NCBI RefSeq assembly: GCF_965641715.1
Contig: NZ_OZ282455.1
DNA: 64,000 nt
Source of the DNA: Escherichia coli
Lineage (GTDB): Bacteria > Pseudomonadota > Gammaproteobacteria > Enterobacterales > Enterobacteriaceae
Strand: one strand, 5' to 3'
The number at the start of each line of letters is the position of its first letter. Within the stretch, counting starts at the first letter, position 1. This document shows, one piece after another, positions 2,619 through 19,878 of this stretch. The position numbers and the translations under genes are program-made. A model generated the notes under the pieces. It saw only the letters and a program-made list of their open reading frames with translations, was not told the origin of the DNA and ran no database searches.

Positions 2619-3053
2619 ATGTACGGAACATGCGAAACGCTCTGCCGTGAGCTGGCAGCAAAGTATCCGGGAAACACGCCGCTGATGCTGCTTATCTGGT
2701 CCCCGGAAGAGATTCAGGCACTGGCCGACGGTATGGAAATTTCTCTGACCGATCATGAAATCAGGACTGTCCTGGCGCACCTGGAGGACATCCCGGAAGA
2801 CCAGCGGACTGAGTCCGGTATTTCTTCCGCCGCGGCGATGGAGATTATCAGCAACGTGAGCGAAAACCGCCTGGTGACCGTCCCTGCTGAACTGCTGGCG
2901 TCCCTGATTCAGACCGCTGAACAGGCACTGTGGAAACGTGAATGGGCCGCCCGTGATAACGGCCTTGCCGTCCCGGAATGTGTTACCCGCCGTCAGGCAG
3001 TGATTAATCAGGCCCGCACCCTGCTGAAAAACAACACACACGAAAACAACTGA
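2619..3053 (+). CDS. hypothetical protein (144 aa), paralog of 4762..5184
   Basis: Track ORF with AGGAGG-like SD; shares SLTD.E..TV...L.D and VTVPA motifs with ORF 4762..5184. Confidence 0.6.
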
Positions 3054-3103
3054 TGTTATCGCCGCCTGCCCTGCGGGCGGCGATACAGGGAGAACGCTTA
3101 ATC

Positions 3104-3874
3104 ATGAACAAAACGCTGAATGCACTGGTTTGTCGTCACGCCCGTAACCTGCTGCTGGCGCAGGGCTGGCCGGAAGAGACGGATGTTGACCAGCGAAATC
3201 CGAACTATCCGGGCTGGATCAGCATTTACGTGCGGCTGGATGCGCCCCGGCTGGCGACGTTACTTATCAACCGTCACGGCGGCGTACTGCCGCCGCTCCT
3301 GGCCTCCGCCATTCAGAGACTGACCGGAACCGGGGCGGAACTGGTACTGTCCGGCAGTCAGTGGCAATCGCTGCCGGTACTTCCGGCAGACGGAACGCAG
3401 GTGTCTTTCCCGTATGCCGGAGAATGGCTGACCGAAGACGAAATCAGGGCTGTTCTTGATGCGGTGCACGATGCGGTACGAAGCATCTGTTACCAGGTGG
3501 CAGACGATGCGCGGCGTATCCGTGCGGCGCTGACCACCACCGGTCAGACGTTGCTGACCCGCCAGACGCGCCGCTTTCGCCTGGTCGTGAAGGAAAGCGA
3601 TCACCCCTGCTGGCTCGATGAAGATGACGAAAACCTGCCCGTGGTGCTCGATGCCATCGTGAACCGGGGAGCACGTTTTTCGTCGGTGGAAATGTACCTG
3701 GTCAGCGATTGTATTGAGCATATCCTGTCCAGTGGGCTGGCCTGCGATGTGCTGCGTATACCTGATGAATCGCCCCGCCGCTGGTTTGACCGTGGTGTTC
3801 TGCGGGAGGTGGTCCGGGAAGCCCGGACCGAAATCCGCAGCATGGCGGATGCCCTGGCAAAAATCCGGAAATGA
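3104..3874 (+). CDS. hypothetical protein (256 aa)
   Basis: Track ORF 3053..3874; ATG at 3104 follows a stem-loop (3056..3082) and a GGGAGA SD-like sequence. Confidence 0.55.
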
Positions 3875-5411: not shown

Positions 5412-6125
5412 AAAACCCCTGGCAGGCTGACGCCTGCCGGAAATGCGGGGTGCAGCGCCTGCGGCGCTGCCGGCCCGGCTTTCCGGTCAGAAGGTAGTGT
5501 ATGGCTGTATGCAGGGAACAGGTGTGATATTCCGTGACACTGTCACTGTTTCTGGCTGTCTTTTATTGCGCCCACTTCGGCTCCCGGCTGCCTGGCGGCA
5601 TCCGGTCGTCAGGCCCGACTCCGACAGGCAGCTGCTGGCGCACCCGCCAGTCTCCGCCGAACCCGCTGGCGCGGTTTCGGGCTGCCGCTACGGTCCGATG
5701 CGTGAAAACCCGGCTTGCAGCGACCGTTCCGGTCGCGCCGCCCCTGTCGCGCCGTGACCTGCGCTCCCTGCACACCTGACGGTGTGTGAGGAAACTGCGC
5801 CTGATGGCGCAGCAGTCTTCCCTCCTGCCGCCACCCCTGCGGCCTGTTTCCCGCTGTGGACTTTCCGGGGGGCAGACGTAACCCCCTCCCGTTCCATCTG
5901 TCCAGGGTGAGATGCACCGGCCACAAAATTTTTAGCCATGAACCCGGCTAAAAATTTTGCGTCCGCCCCCGGACAGCTGTCCCGTGAGGCGGTAAACGGG
6001 CCCCCATCGGAAAGGTCCACTGCGGGGAGAAACCCCTGTGAAGTGGACGGCAGGAGGAGCTTTCGCTCCTCTGAAGGGGCACATGAACGTCCCGTCGCCG
6101 GTATCCGGTTTATCTCACATCTTTC
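5412..6125. repeat. dispersed leading-region repeat, family B copy 1 (candidate ssDNA promoter / Frpo-ssi-like element)
   Basis: About 700 nt highly similar to 11782..12445; 3' part (about 5745..6125) also shared with 14961..15315; contains AT-rich palindrome CAAAATTTTTAGCC-N9-GGCTAAAAATTTTG; ends at ssb SD. Confidence 0.7.
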
Positions 6126-11781: not shown

Positions 11782-12445
11782 GAAAACCCTGGCAGGCTTA
11801 CGCCTGCCTGAAATGCAGGAGGGCCGCGCCTGCGGCGCTGCCCTTCCTGCCCGTCATGGTGTGAGGCATTTTTCTGTTATGTCGTTTCTGTTGTTCTGAT
11901 TTCCGGAGGCGGGGACACCTTCGGCTCCCGGCTGCCTGGCGGCATCCGGTCGTCAGGCCCGACTCCGACAGGCAGCTGCTGGCGCACCCGCCAGTCTCCG
12001 CCGAACCCGCTGGCGCGGTTTCGGGCTGCCGCTACGGTCCGATGTCTGAAAAACCAGGCTTGCAGCGACCGTTCCGGTCGCGCCGCCCCTGTCGCGCCGG
12101 AAACGGCGCTCCCTGCACACCTGACGGTGTGTAAGGCCACTGCGCCTGATGGCGCAGTCAACCCTTCCGCCGCCACCCCTGCGGCCTGTTTCCCGCTGTG
12201 GACTTTCCGGGGGCTGGAGTAACCACATCCCGTTTCAGCAGTCTAGGGGAAGATATACCGTCCACAAAATTTTTAGCCATAAACCCGGCAAAAAATTTTG
12301 CGTCCGCCCCCGGACAGCTGCCCCGTGACGTGGTGACGGACGCCCCATCGGAAAGGTCCACTGCGGGGAGAAACCCCGAAGAAGTGGACGGCAGAAGGGG
12401 CTTTCGCCCCTCCGGGGAGCAACCGGTCGGCCCGGCGACCTGATT
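11782..12445. repeat. dispersed leading-region repeat, family B copy 2
   Basis: Similar to 5412..6125 over about 660 nt; ends at SD of ORF 12466. Confidence 0.7.
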
Positions 12446-12465
12446 CAGCAGAAGGAGACGTTTTC

Positions 12466-12900
12466 ATGACAGTCAGCAGCACGATTTCCGTTTTTTGCCG
12501 CGACGGGGTGTTCCGTACCGTTTACTGCCACCTGCACGGGGAGCCGACCTGGAACGGTCGCATCCTGCATACCCACTATGCCACCGGTCAGCAGGCCGAA
12601 GCCCTGGTTGAACACGGTGATATCCGTTGCCTCGGTCCCCGTTGCGACAAACCCGCCGGGCATACGCTTCAGAACCCGGTGGACGGTGTGACGGCTTATT
12701 ACGGACGTGACAGTGGTTTCCGGATGGACAGTGAGGCGCGTGAGTACCGTTCTTTCAGGGAGGCTATTGCCACTGAAAGCACTGAAGAGGTGCGCTTCCA
12801 TTATGTGTTCATCGACGGCTACTGGAAGGTGATGTACCGCACGCCGGAAGGCTGGAAGATGAAAGCGCTCGCGCTGGCACTGCGTCGCTGTCCGAAATGA
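12466..12900 (+). CDS. hypothetical protein (144 aa)
   Basis: Track ORF with GAAGGAGA SD; immediately downstream of family B repeat; hairpin after stop. Confidence 0.6.
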   Translation: MTVSSTISVFCRDGVFRTVYCHLHGEPTWNGRILHTHYATGQQAEALVEHGDIRCLGPRCDKPAGHTLQNPVDGVTAYYGRDSGFRMDSEAREYRSFREAIATESTEEVRFHYVFIDGYWKVMYRTPEGWKMKALALALRRCPK

Positions 12901-12993
12901 AAAAAAGGCAGGGCGATAAACCCTGCCTCTCTCCGCCGGCGCTTCCCCGCCAGGAAGTCCGGCATCTCAATCACTATCTATGGAGATTATGCC

Positions 12994-13260
12994 ATGAGAC
13001 CATCAATTATCTTCGCAACCGCCGAGTATGTAAAGCGTCTGCGTGAAGAGTGCCTGCGGGAGAATAAACCCCTGCACCGCCATACCCGCTTCAGACGTCA
13101 GGAGCTGGCACAGGATGAGATTAACCCGGACGTCCTGGCGATGAGCGGCCATATCGCCAGACGCTGCAGTGAGCAGAAGCGGGTGCGTATCCCCGCTATG
13201 AAAGTCAGCGAATGGGGCCACCTGCTCCGCGCGCTTGAAATTGAGCGGGTCTGCCACTGA
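12994..13260 (+). CDS. hypothetical protein (88 aa)
   Basis: Track ORF with GGAG SD. Confidence 0.5.
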   Translation: MRPSIIFATAEYVKRLREECLRENKPLHRHTRFRRQELAQDEINPDVLAMSGHIARRCSEQKRVRIPAMKVSEWGHLLRALEIERVCH

Positions 13261-13324
13261 TTAACCCTTGCCGTCTGCCTGTGCAGGCGGCAGGATACGT
13301 TCAGACATCTCACCAGGAGGAACC

Positions 13325-14251
13325 GTGAGTAAGAAGAAAACCACCACGACGCCCACGCCGCATGATGCCGCGTTCCGGTCGTTCCTGGCGAATCCCGACG
13401 TCGCCAGAGATTTTCTGGAACTGCATCTTCCGGCGGAGTACCGGCAGTTGTGCGACCTGTCCACGCTGAAGCTGGAACCCGCCACCTTTGTTGAGCCGGA
13501 CCTGCATCAGTACGCCAGCGATATCCTCTGGAGTGTGAAAACCACCGGGGGTGAAGATGGCTATGTTTATACGCTCATCGAGCACCAGAGCACCGAAAAT
13601 CTGTACATGCCTTTCCGCATGTTACGTTACAGTGTGGCGGCGATGCAGAGACATCTGGAGCAGCACAAAACGTTGCCACTGGTCATTCCGGTGCTGTTCT
13701 ATCACGGTGAGCGCAGCCCGTACCCGTACAGCATGAACTGGCTGGACTGTTTTGAGAATCCGGCGCTTGCGGCTAAAATATACACAAAGCCGTTTCCGCT
13801 GGTTGATATCACTGTCGTTGATGACAATGAAATCATGAACCATCGCCGGATGGCCGCACTGACGCTGCTGATGAAGCATATCCGCCATCGTGACATGATG
13901 GAGCTGCTGGACAAACTCCCGCAGGTCATGGTGGAAATTTCAGACGAGCAGGTGCGTGTTCTGATTCATTACATCGTTAACGCAGGGGACTCTGTATCAC
14001 CGGAATTTATGCGGGCGCTGGCTGAGCGTCTGCCGCAGCATGAGGATAAACTGATGACTATCGCAGAACGTCTTGAGCAAAAAGGTCGCCAGGAAGGCAG
14101 GATGGAAGGACGCATGGAAGGACGCATGGAAGGAGCGCTTGAAAAAGCCCTGGCTATTGCGTGCCAGCTTCAGAAAATGGGGATGACGCCGGAGCAGATT
14201 AAGCAGGCTACCGGACTTTCCGATGACGAACTGAAGAAAATCACTCACTGA
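13325..14251 (+). CDS. Rpn-family recombination-promoting nuclease (YhgA-like, PD-(D/E)xK)
   Basis: Track ORF 13268..14251; GTG at 13325 after CAGGAGG; YhgA-like N-terminal region; C-terminal tandem GRMEGRMEGRMEG repeat (about 14096..14134). Confidence 0.75.
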   Translation: MSKKKTTTTPTPHDAAFRSFLANPDVARDFLELHLPAEYRQLCDLSTLKLEPATFVEPDLHQYASDILWSVKTTGGEDGYVYTLIEHQSTENLYMPFRMLRYSVAAMQRHLEQHKTLPLVIPVLFYHGERSPYPYSMNWLDCFENPALAAKIYTKPFPLVDITVVDDNEIMNHRRMAALTLLMKHIRHRDMMELLDKLPQVMVEISDEQVRVLIHYIVNAGDSVSPEFMRALAERLPQHEDKLMTIAERLEQKGRQEGRMEGRMEGRMEGALEKALAIACQLQKMGMTPEQIKQATGLSDDELKKITH

Positions 14252-14262
14252 GTAAACATCAC

Positions 14263-14288
14263 AGCCCGGCAAAATGCCGGGCTTTTTT
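14263..14288 (+). terminator. Rho-independent terminator
   Basis: AGCCCGGC-aaaat-GCCGGGC followed by TTTTTT after Rpn stop. Confidence 0.6.
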
Positions 14289-14312
14289 GTCAGCAGGAGC
14301 AGAGCAAACAGC

Positions 14313-14471
14313 ATGACGATTGCAGAACGTCTTATTCAAAAAGGCGCACTTGAAGTGGCGCGGGAAATAGCCTGCCGGCTGCGGGATATGGGCTGGACGC
14401 CGGAACGGATTCAGGAGGCAACCGGACTTTCCGGTGAAGAACTGAAAAAGCTGTTTCCTGATGAGCAGTAG
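14313..14471 (+). CDS. small protein homologous to the Rpn C-terminal tail (RpnS/YpaA-like)
   Basis: 52 aa (MTIAERLIQKGALEVAREIACRL…) aligns with the last about 60 aa of the upstream Rpn protein but lacks the GRMEG repeats. Confidence 0.5.
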   Translation: MTIAERLIQKGALEVAREIACRLRDMGWTPERIQEATGLSGEELKKLFPDEQ

Positions 14472-14501
14472 CCTGGCATTCAGCCAGGCTGTGAATCACG
14501 C

Positions 14502-14753
14502 TCACACATCCTCTGCCGTTTCCCCCAGTTCATTTTCCAGTCGCCTGATGATATCTGCCTTACGCATCCCCTGCATGTGAGGCAGCAGGTCACGGACTGA
14601 AAGTGCCTGGGTGGTCCTCCAGACGGTGACGTCCACCTGTTCCGCATTTTCCCAGGCGTGCCATGTTCTCTGCGTCACGCCAAATTCTCTGGCCGCTTTT
14701 TCGCGTGACCAGAGCATGCTTTTTCGCCAGATTCGCAGTTCCCAGCCGGTCAT
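14502..14753 (-). CDS. small HTH DNA-binding protein (XRE/Cro-like candidate regulator)
   Basis: 83 aa; HTH-like segment SREKAAREFGVTQRTWHAWEN; AAGGTG SD; divergent from leading genes. Confidence 0.6.
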   Translation of the reverse strand: MTGWELRIWRKSMLWSREKAAREFGVTQRTWHAWENAEQVDVTVWRTTQALSVRDLLPHMQGMRKADIIRRLENELGETAEDV

Positions 14754-14767
14754 AAAACACCTTTAAA

Positions 14768-14788
14768 AAAGTGAAAAAACTTCACTTT
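14768..14788. promoter_or_regulatory. operator-like palindrome AAAGTGAA-N5-TTCACTTT (site 1)
   Basis: Perfect 8-bp inverted repeat about 15 nt upstream of the HTH gene start. Confidence 0.5.
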
Positions 14789-14834
14789 ATTTTATCATCA
14801 TAATCACCAAATTAACGCGATAAATAAGTGTGAA

Positions 14835-14855
14835 AAAGTGAAGAAATTTCACTTT
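14835..14855. promoter_or_regulatory. operator-like palindrome AAAGTGAA-N5-TTCACTTT (site 2)
   Basis: Second identical palindrome 67 bp from site 1 in an AT-rich divergent promoter region. Confidence 0.5.
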
Positions 14856-14960
14856 TTTTGCTTGTAAATGTCGTGCGGTTTTCTCTGTTTTCACCTGTGC
14901 GGGAGTGGTGTGCCAGTGACCACCACATGCCATTGTTGTGCCGTCGTTTTTCTTCAGTCG

Positions 14961-15315
14961 CGCCGTATGCGGCGCTCCCTGCACACCTTACGGTGTGTAA
15001 GGCCACTGCGCCTGATGGCGCAGCTGTCTCTGCCTGTCTGCCGCCGCACTGCGGCCTGTTCTCCGCAGACGGACTTTCCGGGGGTACATACATGACCACA
15101 TCCCGTTTCAGTCGTCCAGGGGAGAGATGTACCAGCCACAAAACTTTTTGCCGCAGGCGTCAAAAACTTTTGCGTCTGCCCCCGGACAACTGCCCCGTGA
15201 CGTGGTGAGCGTCCCCCGTCGGAAAGGTCCACTGCGGGGAAATCCCCGAAGACCCGGACGGCAGAAGGAGCTTCGCTCCTCCGGGAAATGACCTGGCTGA
15301 CCCGGCAGTCGTGAC
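14961..15315. repeat. dispersed leading-region repeat, family B copy 3 (3' unit only)
   Basis: Matches only the 3' about 355 nt of copies 1 and 2; ends at SD of ORF 15330. Confidence 0.65.
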
Positions 15316-15329
15316 GATGAGGAGACAAT

Positions 15330-16181
15330 GTGATGAATCAGACTTTACCCACTGCTGACCTGAATACTGCCGGCACGACAGATGTTATTCCGTCTGTGGC
15401 TATCGACCGCATCATCGCGCAGCGTAACGAAGGTATTGCACTGTTCATGCAGGCGATGGAATGCCTGGCGACAGCGCGCAAGATTCTGCTCGATGCGTCA
15501 GGTGATATTTTTCTTTACGGGTTTGAAGACTGCGTGACTGATTCCGTTCGTCGCATAGATAAACCGGAAGAAGCGAAAAGGAATATCACCCGTCTTGCCG
15601 ACCGGAAAATCTGGGATCGCCTGATGACAGATACGGGCATGTACACCTTCATGAGTTCATGCCAGCGTGATGAGTGGAACAGCCAGCTGATGAGCGACAC
15701 CTGTCCTGAAATCACCCTGGACAATGTACTGGCAACATTCCGCCATCTGAATGCCTGCAAGATGCAGACATTTGAACAGGGACTGATTGATGTCTACCGG
15801 AAATTGTCATGGGATTACAGAACCAATAATCCCTGCCGTCTGGGTAAGAAAATCATTATTGAAAACCTGCTGTACCGCTGGAGTAACGGGCGTGTGACGC
15901 TGGACTGCAGCGGACGGGAGGCACTGGATGACCTGGTACGTCCGTTTTATCTGCTGGAGGGGCGCAACGTTCCTGACTTCAGGAACAGTATCGGGGCGCA
16001 GTATGGTGAATTTCTCGGGAACGGCGACAATGTCGGTAAGCTGTTAGAAGGGGAATATTTTACGGTGCGTGGCTACCAGAAAGGGACCGTACACATTGTC
16101 TTTAAGCGTTCTGACCTTGTTGAAAAACTGAATGATATTATTGCACGGCATTATCCAGGTGCATTGCCGCCACGAGTCTGA
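15330..16181 (+). CDS. hypothetical protein (283 aa), oriT-proximal leading gene
   Basis: Track ORF with GAGGAGA SD; hairpin plus T-run after stop. Confidence 0.6.
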   Translation: MMNQTLPTADLNTAGTTDVIPSVAIDRIIAQRNEGIALFMQAMECLATARKILLDASGDIFLYGFEDCVTDSVRRIDKPEEAKRNITRLADRKIWDRLMTDTGMYTFMSSCQRDEWNSQLMSDTCPEITLDNVLATFRHLNACKMQTFEQGLIDVYRKLSWDYRTNNPCRLGKKIIIENLLYRWSNGRVTLDCSGREALDDLVRPFYLLEGRNVPDFRNSIGAQYGEFLGNGDNVGKLLEGEYFTVRGYQKGTVHIVFKRSDLVEKLNDIIARHYPGALPPRV

Positions 16182-16266
16182 TTAAACAGAAAAGCCCTGG
16201 TATTTATGCCGGGGCTTTTTTTTCTGTAATCATCATAATCTCAGAACACGATGTGACATTGTCACA

Positions 16267-16602
16267 TCAATTGTTGTTCATATCGATGCCATCTTTCCTG
16301 CCTGAATCTGTCTTTTTAGGTGCTGTTTTAGAGGAAGAACGGCGGGATGGTTTTTTCGATTCTGCTTCCCGAATAATGTCACGAAGTGCCTTCTCTCCTA
16401 CTTCATACCCTGCATTTTTGAGCGTGTCACGAACATCTGCCAGTGTATAACCCTTTGTCCTTACCAGGACAATAATGTCATCACGAATGGCATCAAGAAA
16501 ATCACGCAATGTTTTCCGTTGAGCGGTGAGATCTGGCAATTCCGATAAAGCAGCTTTTGCCAGCTGGATGTCATCATCTGAGTAAAATTTTTTAGAAGCC
16601 AT
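16267..16602 (-). CDS. hypothetical small protein with basic C-terminal tail (111 aa)
   Basis: Track ORF 16267..16608 (GTG); ATG at 16602 with GGAGAG SD; tail SKKPSRRSSSKTAPKKTDSGRKDG suggests nucleic-acid binding. Confidence 0.5.
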   Translation of the reverse strand: MASKKFYSDDDIQLAKAALSELPDLTAQRKTLRDFLDAIRDDIIVLVRTKGYTLADVRDTLKNAGYEVGEKALRDIIREAESKKPSRRSSSKTAPKKTDSGRKDGIDMNNN

Positions 16603-16660
16603 TGGCACTTTCTCTCCGTTTCATGTTGAAGTCTGATTTTATCATCAAAAACTGACTCCT

Positions 16661-16791
16661 GGCAGGGCTGCGCCCTGCCTCTGCCGTCTGCATAAGACTA
16701 TGATGCACAAAAATAACAGGCTATAATGGCCTGAAAAACGGGACAGGATGTGCAATTGTAATACCGTCACACGCGACGCTATTACAATTGC
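16661..16791 (-). other. oriT: oriT (origin of transfer) with predicted nic site on the - strand
   Basis: 12-bp inverted repeat GCAATTGTAATA / TATTACAATTGC (16752..16763, 16780..16791); on the - strand the repeat is followed by ACATCCTG then TCCC, matching the IncP-type nick consensus ATCCTG|Y, which places the nick between + coordinates 16744/16743, 8 nt from the repeat; second palindrome GGCAGGGCTGCGCCCTGCC at 16661..16679; directly upstream of nikA. Confidence 0.7.
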
Positions 16792-16835
16792 CATCTGGTC
16801 AGGGCTTCGCCCCGACACCCCGTAAGGAGCCTGAA

Positions 16836-17168
16836 GTGAGTGATAGTGCGGTAAGAAAGAAAAGTGAGGTACGGCAAAAGACAGTTGTCAGGACACTCAG
16901 ATTCTCTCCTGTTGAGGATGAAACCATCAGGAAAAAAGCTGAAGATTCCGGACTTACTGTATCTGCTTACATCCGAAATGCAGCACTGAATAAGCGAATT
17001 AACTCCCGTACAGATGATGCTTTTCTGAAGGAGTTAATGAGACTGGGAAGGATGCAGAAGCATCTGTTTGTTCAGGGAAAAAGAACCGGTGACAAGGAAT
17101 ACGCAGAAGTGCTTGTTGCCATAACCGAACTTACAAATACATTGCGTAAACAGTTAATGGAAGGTTGA
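16836..17168 (+). CDS. nikA: relaxosome accessory protein NikA
   Basis: Track ORF 16788..17168; GTG at 16836 after AAGGAG gives 110 aa; adjacent to oriT and nikB. Confidence 0.85.
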   Translation: MSDSAVRKKSEVRQKTVVRTLRFSPVEDETIRKKAEDSGLTVSAYIRNAALNKRINSRTDDAFLKELMRLGRMQKHLFVQGKRTGDKEYAEVLVAITELTNTLRKQLMEG

Positions 17169-17178
17169 GGATTCTCCG

Positions 17179-19878
17179 GTGAATGCAGTCATTCCAAAAA
17201 AGAGAAGGGACGGCAAGTCTTCGTTCGAAGACCTGGTATCCTACGTCTCTGTCCGGGATGACATGACCGATGAGGAACTGGATTTATCTTCTTCTTCGCA
17301 GGCTGAACAACCGCACCGAAGCCGTTTCAGTCGCCTTGTTGATTATGCGACACGTCTTCGAAATGAGTCATTCGTGGCGCTGGTTGATGTCATGAAGGAC
17401 GGCTGCGAATGGGTCAACTTTTATGGTGTCACCTGCTTTCATAACTGTACTTCTCTTGAAACTGCCGCTGCAGATATGGAGTACATTGCCCGGCAGGCAC
17501 ACTATGCAAAAGATGACACTGATCCTGTTTTTCACTACATTCTTTCCTGGCAGTCACATGAAAGCCCGCGTCCGGAACAGATTTATGACAGTGTACGTCA
17601 TACGCTGAAATCACTCGGCCTTGCCGACCATCAGTATGTCTCTGCCGTGCATACTGATACAGATAATCTGCACGTCCATGTGGCTGTTAACCGGGTACAC
17701 CCTGAAACGGGTTATCTGAACCGGTTATCCTGGAGTCAGGAAAAACTCAGTCGTGCCTGCCGTGAGCTTGAACTGAAGCATGGTTTTGCTCCGGATAACG
17801 GTTGCTGGGTCCATGCACCGGGAAATCGTATCGTTCGCAAAACCGCCGTTGAACGTGATCGCCAGAACGCGTGGACACGCGGGAAAAAACAAACTTTTCG
17901 CGAGTATGTCGCGCAGACAGCGGTCGCTGGTTTACGCAGTGAACCTGTAAATGACTGGTTATCCCTGCATCGTCGTCTTGCGGAAGATGGTCTGTACCTG
18001 TCTCAGATGGACGGAAAATTTCTGGTGATGGATGGCTGGGATCGCAACAGGGAAGGTGTACAGCTTGACTCGTTTGGTCCCTCCTGGTGTGCAGAAAAAC
18101 TCATGAAAAAAATGGGTGACTACACGCCAGTACCAAAAGACATTTTCAGCCAGGTGGAAGCACCAGGACGCTATAATCCGCACTTCATTGCCGCTGATGT
18201 TCGCCCGGAAAAAATCGCTGAAACAGAAAGTCTGCAGCAGTATGCCTGTCGTCATCTTGGAGAACGTCTGCCGGAAATGGCACGGGAAGGACGGCTGGAA
18301 AACTGCCAAGCTATTCACCGCACACTGGCTGAAGCGGGATTATGGATGCGTGTTCAGCATGGTCACCTGGTTATCTGTGACGGTTATGATCATAACCAGA
18401 CTCCCGTTCGTGCTGACAGCGTATGGTCGCTGCTGACGCTCGACAATGTGAATCAACTCGATGGTGGCTGGCAGCCTGTACCAACAGATATTTTCCGCCA
18501 GGTTACGCCAACAGAACGCTTCCGTGGTCGTCGTATGGAGAGCTGTCCTGCGACCGATAAAGAATGGCACCGTATGCGTACAGGCACGGGGCCGCAGGGG
18601 GCTATCAAACGCGAACTGTTTTCTGACAAAGAAAGTCTGTGGGGATACAGCATCAGCCATTGTAGCCCTCAGATTGAAGAAATGATCACACAGGGTGAGT
18701 TTACCTGGCAGCGTTGTCATGAGCTGTTTGCACAACAGGGACTGATGCTACAGAAACAACATCACGGGCTTGTTGTCGTTGATGCCTTTAATCATGAGCA
18801 AACGCCGGTGAAGGCCAGCAGCATTCATCCTGATCTGACACTGGGGCGTGCAGAGCCACAGGCCGGACCTTTTGTGAGTGCCCCAGCAGATTTGTTTGAC
18901 AGGGTGCAACCTGAAAGTCGCTATAACCCGGAGCTGGCTGTCAGTGACAGGTACGGGGTCAGCAGTAAACGTGACCCAATGCTGCGCCGGCAGCGACGTA
19001 AAGCCAGAGCTGAGGCCCGTGCTGACCTGCGTGCCCGCTATCTGGCATGGCGTGAACAATGGCGTAAACCAGATCTGCGTTATGGGGAACGTTGTCGGGA
19101 AATTCATCAGGCATGCCGTCTGCGGAAGTCACACATTCGTGCGCAGTACGATGATCCGGCATTACGTAAGCTGCATTATCACATTGCAGAAGTTCAGCGA
19201 ATGCAGGCATTGATCAGGCTGAAAGAAGACATCAGGGATGAGCGACAGAAACTTATTGCTGACGGGAAGTGGTATCCACCCTCTTACCGTCAGTGGGTCG
19301 AAACTCAGGCTGCTCAGGGAGACAGGGCTGCTGTATCGCAGCTGAGAGGCTGGGATTATCGCGATCGCCGTAAAGACAGGTCACGCACAACGACGACAGA
19401 CCGCTGTGTCGTGCTTTGTGAACCGGGCGGAACGCCGGTATACGGTAATACCGGTGATCTCGAGGCCCGTCTGCAGAAGAACGGGAGTGTTCGTTTCCGT
19501 GACCGTCGGACGGGAGAGTTTGTCTGTACGGATTATGGTGACAGGGTTGTTTTCCGTAATCACCATGACCGCAATGCGCTGGCAGATAAACTGGATTTGA
19601 TTGCACCGGTATTATTCGGGCGTGATCCTCGCATGGGTTTTGAACCAGAAGGAAACGACAAACAATTTAACCAGGTCTTTGCTGAAATGGTTGCCTGGCA
19701 TAATGTGACAGGCCGTACCGGTCACGAAGACTACAGGATTACGCGACCGGACGTGGATCATCACCGTGAAGGAAGTGAACGCTACTACCGCGATTATATC
19801 GCGGCGAACAGCAACGATGACGCATCACTGCCTCCGCCGGAGCAGGATAAACGCTGGGAACCGCCTTCTCCAGGTTAA
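17179..19878 (+). CDS. nikB: relaxase NikB (MOBP family)
   Basis: 899 aa; histidine triad HTDTDNLHVHVAVN typical of relaxases. Confidence 0.95.
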   Translation: MNAVIPKKRRDGKSSFEDLVSYVSVRDDMTDEELDLSSSSQAEQPHRSRFSRLVDYATRLRNESFVALVDVMKDGCEWVNFYGVTCFHNCTSLETAAADMEYIARQAHYAKDDTDPVFHYILSWQSHESPRPEQIYDSVRHTLKSLGLADHQYVSAVHTDTDNLHVHVAVNRVHPETGYLNRLSWSQEKLSRACRELELKHGFAPDNGCWVHAPGNRIVRKTAVERDRQNAWTRGKKQTFREYVAQTAVAGLRSEPVNDWLSLHRRLAEDGLYLSQMDGKFLVMDGWDRNREGVQLDSFGPSWCAEKLMKKMGDYTPVPKDIFSQVEAPGRYNPHFIAADVRPEKIAETESLQQYACRHLGERLPEMAREGRLENCQAIHRTLAEAGLWMRVQHGHLVICDGYDHNQTPVRADSVWSLLTLDNVNQLDGGWQPVPTDIFRQVTPTERFRGRRMESCPATDKEWHRMRTGTGPQGAIKRELFSDKESLWGYSISHCSPQIEEMITQGEFTWQRCHELFAQQGLMLQKQHHGLVVVDAFNHEQTPVKASSIHPDLTLGRAEPQAGPFVSAPADLFDRVQPESRYNPELAVSDRYGVSSKRDPMLRRQRRKARAEARADLRARYLAWREQWRKPDLRYGERCREIHQACRLRKSHIRAQYDDPALRKLHYHIAEVQRMQALIRLKEDIRDERQKLIADGKWYPPSYRQWVETQAAQGDRAAVSQLRGWDYRDRRKDRSRTTTTDRCVVLCEPGGTPVYGNTGDLEARLQKNGSVRFRDRRTGEFVCTDYGDRVVFRNHHDRNALADKLDLIAPVLFGRDPRMGFEPEGNDKQFNQVFAEMVAWHNVTGRTGHEDYRITRPDVDHHREGSERYYRDYIAANSNDDASLPPPEQDKRWEPPSPG

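Follow-up and report, generated by a model that had tools for sequence, protein, structure and literature searches.

In IncI1 plasmids the transferred strand, as it enters, serves as template for the leading-region genes ssb, psiB and ardA, whose transcription starts from single-stranded DNA (ssDNA) promoters (PMC12672017). Three of these, ssi1-3, have been mapped as ssDNA promoters that are inactive in duplex DNA and go off upon double-strand conversion (PMC12672017). Current models ascribe both the burst of leading-gene expression and its shut-off wholly to ssDNA promoters, and they are silent on regulators encoded on the opposite strand. An opposite-strand leading gene has been followed in plasmid F, where ygfA is produced only 10-20 min after the conversion of single-stranded to double-stranded DNA (PMC9849209). 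A second point of reference is Aca2 of Pectobacterium phage ZF40, an autorepressor with two related inverted repeats round its promoter, the high-affinity one overlapping the promoter (PMC6765145). Here we describe a gene of similar layout, ygeA (14502-14753, minus strand), that lies in the leading region of a plasmid within a 64,000-nucleotide stretch of Escherichia coli DNA (contig NZ_OZ282455.1, hereafter the window). Its name is taken from source records, which follow IncI1 naming, and few other conserved genes of the leading region share its 'wrong' orientation. Two identical-armed palindromes lie before it, and comparison of its homologues makes it likely that ygeA encodes a conventional negative autorepressor, a small XRE-type helix-turn-helix (HTH) protein distantly like the DNA-binding half of Aca2.

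Probable palindromic operators and the predicted ygeA promoter

The proximal palindrome, O1, lies at 14768-14788 and reads AAAGTGAA-AAAAC-TTCACTTT (AAAGTGAAAAAACTTCACTTT), and the distal one, O2, lies at 14835-14855 and reads AAAGTGAA-GAAAT-TTCACTTT (AAAGTGAAGAAATTTCACTTT). Both are 21-bp sites with identical arms, 67 bp apart from centre to centre, in an intergenic gap of 113 bp (14754-14866) that has a GC content of 24.8%, while the window as a whole has 51%. Perfect inverted repeats with arms of 8 bp are no rarity there (39, versus about 5 in block shuffles); O1 and O2 are the sole pair among them that shares the same arms. A search that allowed up to 3 mismatches gave no further site of this type in the window (0.34 expected), and there is none in the remaining 51 kb of the 115-kb E. 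coli plasmid pRKI3099a (IncI-gamma/K1, MOBP relaxase, MPF_I), to which the window is here 100% identical. About 2,000 further plasmids match this region of the window at 95-99%, and ygeA occurs in some 2,000 IncI-type resistance plasmids that have been sequenced, as well as in many relatives.

A predicted extended -10 element (TGATAAAAT, 14789-14797, minus strand) directly adjoins O1. Because a TAAAAT-like -10 is conserved at this place, we put the transcription start of ygeA near 14782, i.e. inside O1. O1 would then span about -6 to +15 of the promoter, and O2 would be centred at about -63. The -35 region holds no good match and varies among 11 IncI sequences. A Shine-Dalgarno sequence, AAAGGTG (14758-14764, minus strand), stands 6 nt upstream of the ATG and is kept in IncI-type relatives. 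The AT-rich spacer between the operators (14798-14834) has about 12 variable columns among the same 11 sequences, and it includes an extra half-site, GTGTGAA (14828-14834), which we rejected as a third site as it is not conserved among IncI plasmids.

A sequence-only reading of this DNA had described two perfect palindromes 67 bp apart, an AT-rich setting and an HTH-like protein of 83 aa, and all three descriptions hold; the protein matches Pfam HTH_31 with an E value of 1.2e-4, an XRE / Cro-C1-type HTH profile. It had also seen divergent promoter-like hexamers. These stand in part: the gap does contain one weak plus-strand sigma-70-like match (GTGAAA-16-TATCAT, 9/12) that overlaps O1, but the match is not conserved. 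The proposal that the protein is an autoregulated repressor, and the expectation that the palindromes would be found in relatives keeping the gene, fared well, as the comparison of homologues indicates: by phylogenetic footprinting the palindrome travels with the gene in plasmids and phages, and its proximal copy adjoins a conserved -10, which gives the autorepressor reading good support.

Homologues were collected by tblastn against plasmids, by a scan of species-representative genomes, by exact-protein look-ups and by tblastn against phages. In 26 homologue loci, with protein identities of 33-99%, a 21-bp site of the form (A/T)AAGTG(C/A/T)A-N5-T(G/T/A)CACTT(T/A) is located just upstream of the gene, and in 23 of them 11-15 bp separate the end of the proximal site from the ATG. 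The palindrome-bearing homologues come from plasmids of Escherichia, Salmonella, Enterobacter, Citrobacter, Erwinia, Yersinia, Rahnella, Buttiauxella and Pluralibacter, from a phage-plasmid and from the Klebsiella phage SopranoGao. The common core is a GTG-N9-CAC palindrome with A/T-rich flanks, where the invariance of positions 4-6 (GTG) and 16-18 (CAC) is built in, these having been fixed by the search pattern. Position 8 (A) and position 14 (T) are kept in 25 of the 26 loci, and position 20 (T) in all. With the stricter pattern GTGNA-N5-TNCAC there are 38 matches at promoter/operator positions versus 2 elsewhere in about 229 kb of flanks, and in most loci a TAAAAT, TAGAAT or TATAAT hexamer directly adjoins the proximal operator. 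The half-sites are GTGAA in the IncI type and GTGCA in other clades and in most family members. A suggested link between recognition-helix residues (Q28/H32 versus L/K) and operator position 7 failed, e.g. locus L037 combines H32 with GTGCA. The IncL/M homologues (pOXA-48 type, about 31-33% identity) were set apart as a different subfamily, since they lie in long co-directional operons and are without such a palindrome.

Conservation within the gap is selective. In a Salmonella clade with 82-86% protein identity, both operators are at the same positions with 17-18 of 21 nucleotides identical (about 85%), and the -10 is kept at 5-6 of 6 positions, whereas the spacer (18-19/40, about 45%) and the upstream flank (18/45) show near-random divergence. 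Among the 11 IncI sequences the GTG/CAC core of O1 is constant, one sequence having a 1-nt indel in the central A-run; the core of O2 is mutated in two. The extended -10 is constant in 10 of the 11, the exception being L006 (E. fergusonii p150_40A, 3001-3233), where it has a 1-nt deletion. The ygeA copy of this plasmid is itself frameshifted by a 1-nt deletion, which is either a pseudogene or a sequencing error, and both of its operators are intact.

Palindromes of this kind might also be something other than YgeA sites, namely hairpins formed by the transferred strand in its single-stranded state or binding sites of a host factor such as the cyclic-AMP receptor protein CRP. The two palindromes can indeed pair in single-stranded DNA (fold z = -3.5), and GTGA...TCAC resembles a pair of CRP half-sites. 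However, the stems are AT-rich and weak, and half-sites may be asymmetric, with GTGTA paired with GTGAA, while the stem bases are constant and do not covary; tolerated asymmetry together with constant stem bases therefore points to recognition by a protein and not to the requirement for a hairpin. The motif moreover accompanies the HTH gene in a phage and a phage-plasmid (L041 and L008), where operators and gene occur outside any plasmid leading region. A CRP site was rejected, since GTGA-N7-TCAC does not have the N6 of CRP and most relatives have GTGCA. We regard this explanation as very improbable.

The phage and phage-plasmid homologues (phrog_6962; L041, L040 and the phage-plasmid L008) carry the same operator type. 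In SopranoGao (L041, 40264-40482) the gene is counter-oriented between the large and small terminase genes, and its two sites are 43 bp apart.

The mechanism that we favour is negative autoregulation. A YgeA dimer would bind the 21-bp AAGTGNA-N5-TNCACTT palindromes before its own gene; dimer binding would fit the symmetry of the operator, the distance of about 10 bp between the half-site cores and the family-wide linkage of site and gene. As O1 begins right after the extended -10 and covers the predicted transcription start, YgeA bound there would block RNA polymerase, so that ygeA would be held at a low, self-limited level. O2, 67 bp upstream, may favour cooperativity or DNA looping, or may make contact with the upstream portion of this promoter. 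The recognisable YgeA targets on the plasmid would be these two operators only.

The protein itself agrees with such a role. Its N-terminus, MTG(W/Y)ELR(L/I)WRK, is common to all homologues, and 24 of 40 family members match Pfam HTH_31/HTH_3 at E <= 0.001. The AlphaFold2 model (pLDDT 91) is a helical bundle with helices at residues 3-12, 17-24, 28-35, 42-60 (long) and 65-75, and it has the XRE fold with the helix-turn-helix at helices 2-3. Foldseek matches of the model include HipB, SinR, the controller (C) proteins and Aca2, with Aca2 (7vjp) at the top; the E values are poor, as expected for a helical protein of 83 residues. When the family profile was compared with solved structures, Aca2 came first (E 1.8e-6, aligned over residues 1-60). 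The family is small, with 288 representatives at E <= 0.001 among 1.8 billion, and the unannotated PHROGs phage family phrog_6962 is a match (E 1.8e-13).

Small HTH proteins of this kind are also found as type II antitoxins and as controller proteins of restriction-modification systems. YgeA has a weak, sub-threshold similarity to HipB, MqsA and HigA, controller proteins likewise use paired palindromes, and the distant IncL/M-type homologues lie in operons beside an Mrr-like nuclease gene. Yet ygeA is apparently monocistronic with convergent neighbours, and there is no toxin or nuclease partner gene in the window or in the syntenic loci, as a type II antitoxin would have. Against NCBIfam models (the VC1465 family, MqsA and HipB) its product scores 13-15 bits, well short of the cut-offs (62-79), and PADLOC returned no match of note. 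The gene context thus largely refutes the antitoxin or controller reading, to which we attach next to no probability.

Orientation, timing and roles beyond autoregulation

The position of ygeA is conserved as well. The gene order relaxase, nikA/mobA, oriT, yggA, one or two leading genes, a GC-rich ssi-like block, the operator(s), the HTH gene and then more leading genes is shared by at least 20 loci. A DUF4942, DUF932 or DUF5983 gene precedes the ssi-like block, and psiA, psiB and a parB-like gene follow the HTH gene. In these loci the HTH gene and yggA are on the strand opposite to the other leading genes. The sequence-only reading had taken ygeA for the only minus-strand gene of the leading region and had placed it at the boundary of that region. 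Neither is so: yggA (16267-16608) is also on the minus strand, and ygeA, which comes second or third after oriT, lies some 2 kb within the leading region.

In position, strand and neighbours ygeA is like leading-region family 22 of Samuel et al. 2024, which has 2333 members with WP_151333485.1 as representative, a median position of 2 from oriT and strand -1. In the table of that study, where rows 18, 20 and 22 agree with the gene order of the window, the family is flanked by an RpnE-like family (position 3) and RpnB (position 4), as in the window. Family 22 is a catalogue entry there, with no operator, mechanism or function described, and its label 'HTH; aca6' rests on 3 of the 2333 members (Samuel et al. 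2024).

Since ssb, psiB and ardA of IncI1 plasmids are transcribed off the incoming strand, the transferred strand is the template of the plus-strand genes and corresponds to the minus strand of the window. All ssDNA-transcribed leading genes are encoded on the other strand, and ygeA can therefore not be transcribed from the transferred strand as it arrives. By analogy with ygfA of plasmid F, we infer that ygeA would be expressed only when second-strand synthesis has supplied the complementary strand, i.e. that it would be a gene of the double-stranded, vegetative phase within the leading region.

The window contains three copies of a GC-rich element of about 330 bp (5746-6071, 12091-12416 and 14957-15285) that are 80-81% identical. 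They are probably ssi1-3 of the IncI1 plasmids, class 1 ssDNA promoters. The third copy, an ssi/Frpo-type element on the minus strand at 14957-15285, lies outside the ygeA module and precedes the plus-strand open reading frame (ORF) 15330-16181. On the transferred (minus) strand it folds into a long hairpin with -101.9 kcal/mol, against -64.5 for shuffles (z = -8.3). ORF 15330-16181 would thus be driven by its own ssi hairpin promoter, which is located downstream of the operators; the operators lie upstream of the ssi3 promoter and are single-stranded when it fires. The approximately 100 bp between O2 and the third ssi copy are unique and freely diverging.

The distal operator differs between loci in presence and in spacing. 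Six loci have it 56-57 bp from the proximal site, the IncI type has it at 67 bp and the phage at 43 bp; degenerate copies are found in Buttiauxella, and about ten homologue loci have the proximal site only. Between the spacings of 56-57 and 67 bp there is a difference of about one helical turn. In four loci (L014, L017, L029 and L030) inserts put 0.8-1.1 kb between the distal site and the proximal one, and in all four the distal site has stayed intact, with a terminator hairpin and the GC-rich ssi-like block beside it. From this pattern O2 looks like an accessory site. The spacer between the operators acts as an insertion site for cassettes: three of the four loci carry HigB/HigA-like toxin-antitoxin genes with their own TTCGTAC-N3-GTACGAA operators (e.g. 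L014, 3156-3990), and the fourth carries a different insert.

The sequence-only reading had gone further and regarded the palindromes as a gate for plus-strand transcription, a possible switch for leading-region expression. In such a two-way switch YgeA on O1 and O2 would also block plus-strand transcription into ssi3 and ORF 15330, either by repression of a divergent promoter or as a roadblock or insulator once the DNA is double-stranded. O2 does lie in the path of any plus-strand transcript, the weak plus-strand promoter match overlaps O1, and both the conserved helical phase of the distal site and its persistence by the ssi-like block despite the inserts would agree with this idea. On the other hand, the hairpin promoter of ORF 15330 lies past the operators and silences itself on double-strand conversion, and across the homologue loci no mirrored -10 or plus-strand promoter is conserved on the far side of the distal sites. 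The loci without a distal site and the O2 mutations in IncI plasmids speak against it as well, the first gene after the ssi element varies among plasmids (DUF4942, DUF932, DUF5983), and in two complete plasmids the operators are found only at the ygeA promoter. The role of YgeA as a switch for leading-region expression is not supported, and we consider the two-way switch unlikely.

A related suggestion is that YgeA is a late leading-region factor. Next to the ssi3 hairpin it could insulate or time the oriT-proximal operon, or influence the conversion of that operon to double-stranded DNA; alternatively it could act in trans on incoming plasmids or phages that carry AAGTG-N9-CACTT sites. We give this suggestion a small chance, and of its possible components, roadblocking or insulation at the ssi3 border, chromosomal targets and targets on related mobile elements are each, taken separately, rather improbable.

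If YgeA worked in trans, autoregulation would only set its level, and its targets would be host chromosomal genes or incoming plasmids and phages with the same operator, in the manner of a 'solo Aca'. Two complete plasmids, of 115 kb and 107 kb, have operators at the promoter of the gene itself and at no other place, which excludes a plasmid-wide regulon at this motif stringency, and yet the position of the gene is strongly conserved. Phage homologues have the same operator type, an action on incoming elements has been suggested for 'solo' Aca-like repressors (PMC9410906), and the difference between GTGAA in the IncI type and GTGCA in other clades could mean that specificities have diverged. 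However, motif scans of the plasmids and homologue loci identified no chromosomal or foreign target. Related elements again carry the operator only at the homologue's own promoter, and cross-repression would therefore silence only another regulator. A trans regulator of this kind seems improbable to us.

We thus return to negative autorepression, against which some points have to be weighed. The promoter of ygeA is assigned from the -10 alone, because its -35 region is poor, and a literature search gave no binding, start-site or expression data for YgeA. The helical-turn spacing of the distal sites and the retention of O2 beside the ssi-like block after insertions hint that the function of O2 exceeds autoregulation. 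Finally, the explanation is incomplete, because a target that is only the gene itself explains no selective value, while the conserved position implies one.

Neighbouring genes and other features

The plus-strand leading genes of the window run toward oriT and encode a DNA methylase, an antirestriction protein, ssb, a parB-like gene, psiB, psiA, ardA, an Rpn nuclease and a DUF4942 gene. Seen from the other side the order is oriT, yggA, DUF4942, ygeA (minus), a small ORF resembling the tail of Rpn, and Rpn. By annotation, oriT lies just upstream of nikA (16788-17168), which is followed by nikB (17179-19878).

The first gene beside oriT, yggA, is annotated as 'MobC', and its synteny with ygeA holds in at least 20 loci. 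In pCTX-M3 the homologue of yggA is Orf35, a repressor of the nikAB-tra operon (PMC6112013). As yggA and ygeA are both counter-oriented and Orf35 is a repressor, the oriT-proximal end of the plasmid may hold two vegetative-phase regulators. The DUF4942 gene and yggA converge on a perfect palindrome, GATGTGAC-ATT-GTCACATC (16250-16268), which is probably a two-way terminator.

On the other side of ygeA, a perfect hairpin with an 8-bp stem, AGCCTGGC-ATTC A-GCCAGGCT (14470-14490), is situated between the convergent stop codons of ygeA and ORF 14274-14471. It is likely to be a two-way terminator, though it has no T-run. The Rpn-family nuclease gene occupies 13268-14251, and the separate 65-aa ORF 14274-14471 that comes after it repeats the C-terminal tail of Rpn. 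This small ORF has 52-66% identity to the Rpn C-terminus of relatives (tblastn) and a weak match to Pfam HTH_Rpn_C, it corresponds to the 'RpnE' family (position 3) of Samuel et al. 2024, and it is missing from one related clade. It might be an inhibitor or a remnant.

RefSeq also lists a 65-aa hypothetical protein, WP_024246589.1 (14787-14984, minus strand), whose ORF crosses both operators and the variable spacer and is lost in diverged relatives; it is most likely spurious. An Rfam scan of 12000-17200 gave chance-level matches only.

Comparison with known regulators

Autoregulation by a small HTH protein is an ordinary, well-known kind of regulation, and what lends this case a moderate interest is the conserved, counter-oriented place of the gene in very common resistance plasmids. 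Now that the operator AAGTGNA-N5-TNCACTT and the promoter layout are defined, the gene is directly testable. If YgeA regulates only itself, the gain is one of annotation, 'autorepressor, Aca2-like HTH' replacing 'hypothetical/XRE regulator'. Should YgeA have targets elsewhere, it would represent a new point of control during plasmid establishment, and if it is a late factor, it would add a protein-based layer to a shut-off that is thought to be purely structural and automatic.

With respect to orientation, ygeA can be compared with ygfA of plasmid F and with yggA/Orf35 of IncI and IncM plasmids, which are likewise coded near oriT against the logic of the transferred strand. The proteins are unrelated to YgeA, ygfA encoding a transglycosylase and the yggA product having no HTH match. 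Plasmid F has neither a homologue of the ygeA HTH gene nor the operator. The gene called 'ygeA' in plasmid F was rejected as a homologue; it is a different, unrelated gene driven by Frpo1.

Aca2 is the closest solved relative of YgeA, over the N-terminal HTH only. Both are found on mobile elements that need early-versus-late control, and in both two inverted repeats surround the promoter. There are several differences. Firstly, Aca2 has about 120 aa with a C-terminal dimerisation domain, whereas YgeA, with 83 aa, has two C-terminal helices instead, according to the model, and the TM-score normalised to Aca2 is 0.41-0.44. Secondly, none of 40 family members matches Pfam Aca2_YdiL (PF08965) at E <= 0.001, and 3 do so at E <= 0.1. 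Thirdly, the Aca2 sites, TTCG-N6/8-CGAA, are unlike the YgeA operators. Fourthly, Aca2 shares its transcript with an acr gene; ygeA, by contrast, is on its own, and no small ORF upstream of it is conserved. An RNA hairpin in the 5' untranslated region, as in Aca2, was rejected as a means of control for ygeA; with the start placed inside O1 the full hairpin would not be transcribed, which makes such control unlikely. YgeA would thus work like Aca2 and other XRE autorepressors, and it is not a member of the Aca2 family.

The other systems that bear comparison are the C proteins of restriction-modification systems and the lambda-type Cro/CI repressors. C.AhdI, C.BclI and C.Esp1396I are among the weak fold matches of YgeA, a likeness at the level of the generic fold only. 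C-box sites are adjacent to each other, whereas the ygeA operators are 56-67 bp apart and of different sequence, and ygeA has no linked restriction gene. In as much as they are small XRE proteins with paired palindromic operators at their own promoters, the C proteins and Cro/CI are similar to YgeA, and they share with the behaviour proposed for ygeA a delayed, self-limiting expression upon entry into a new cell.

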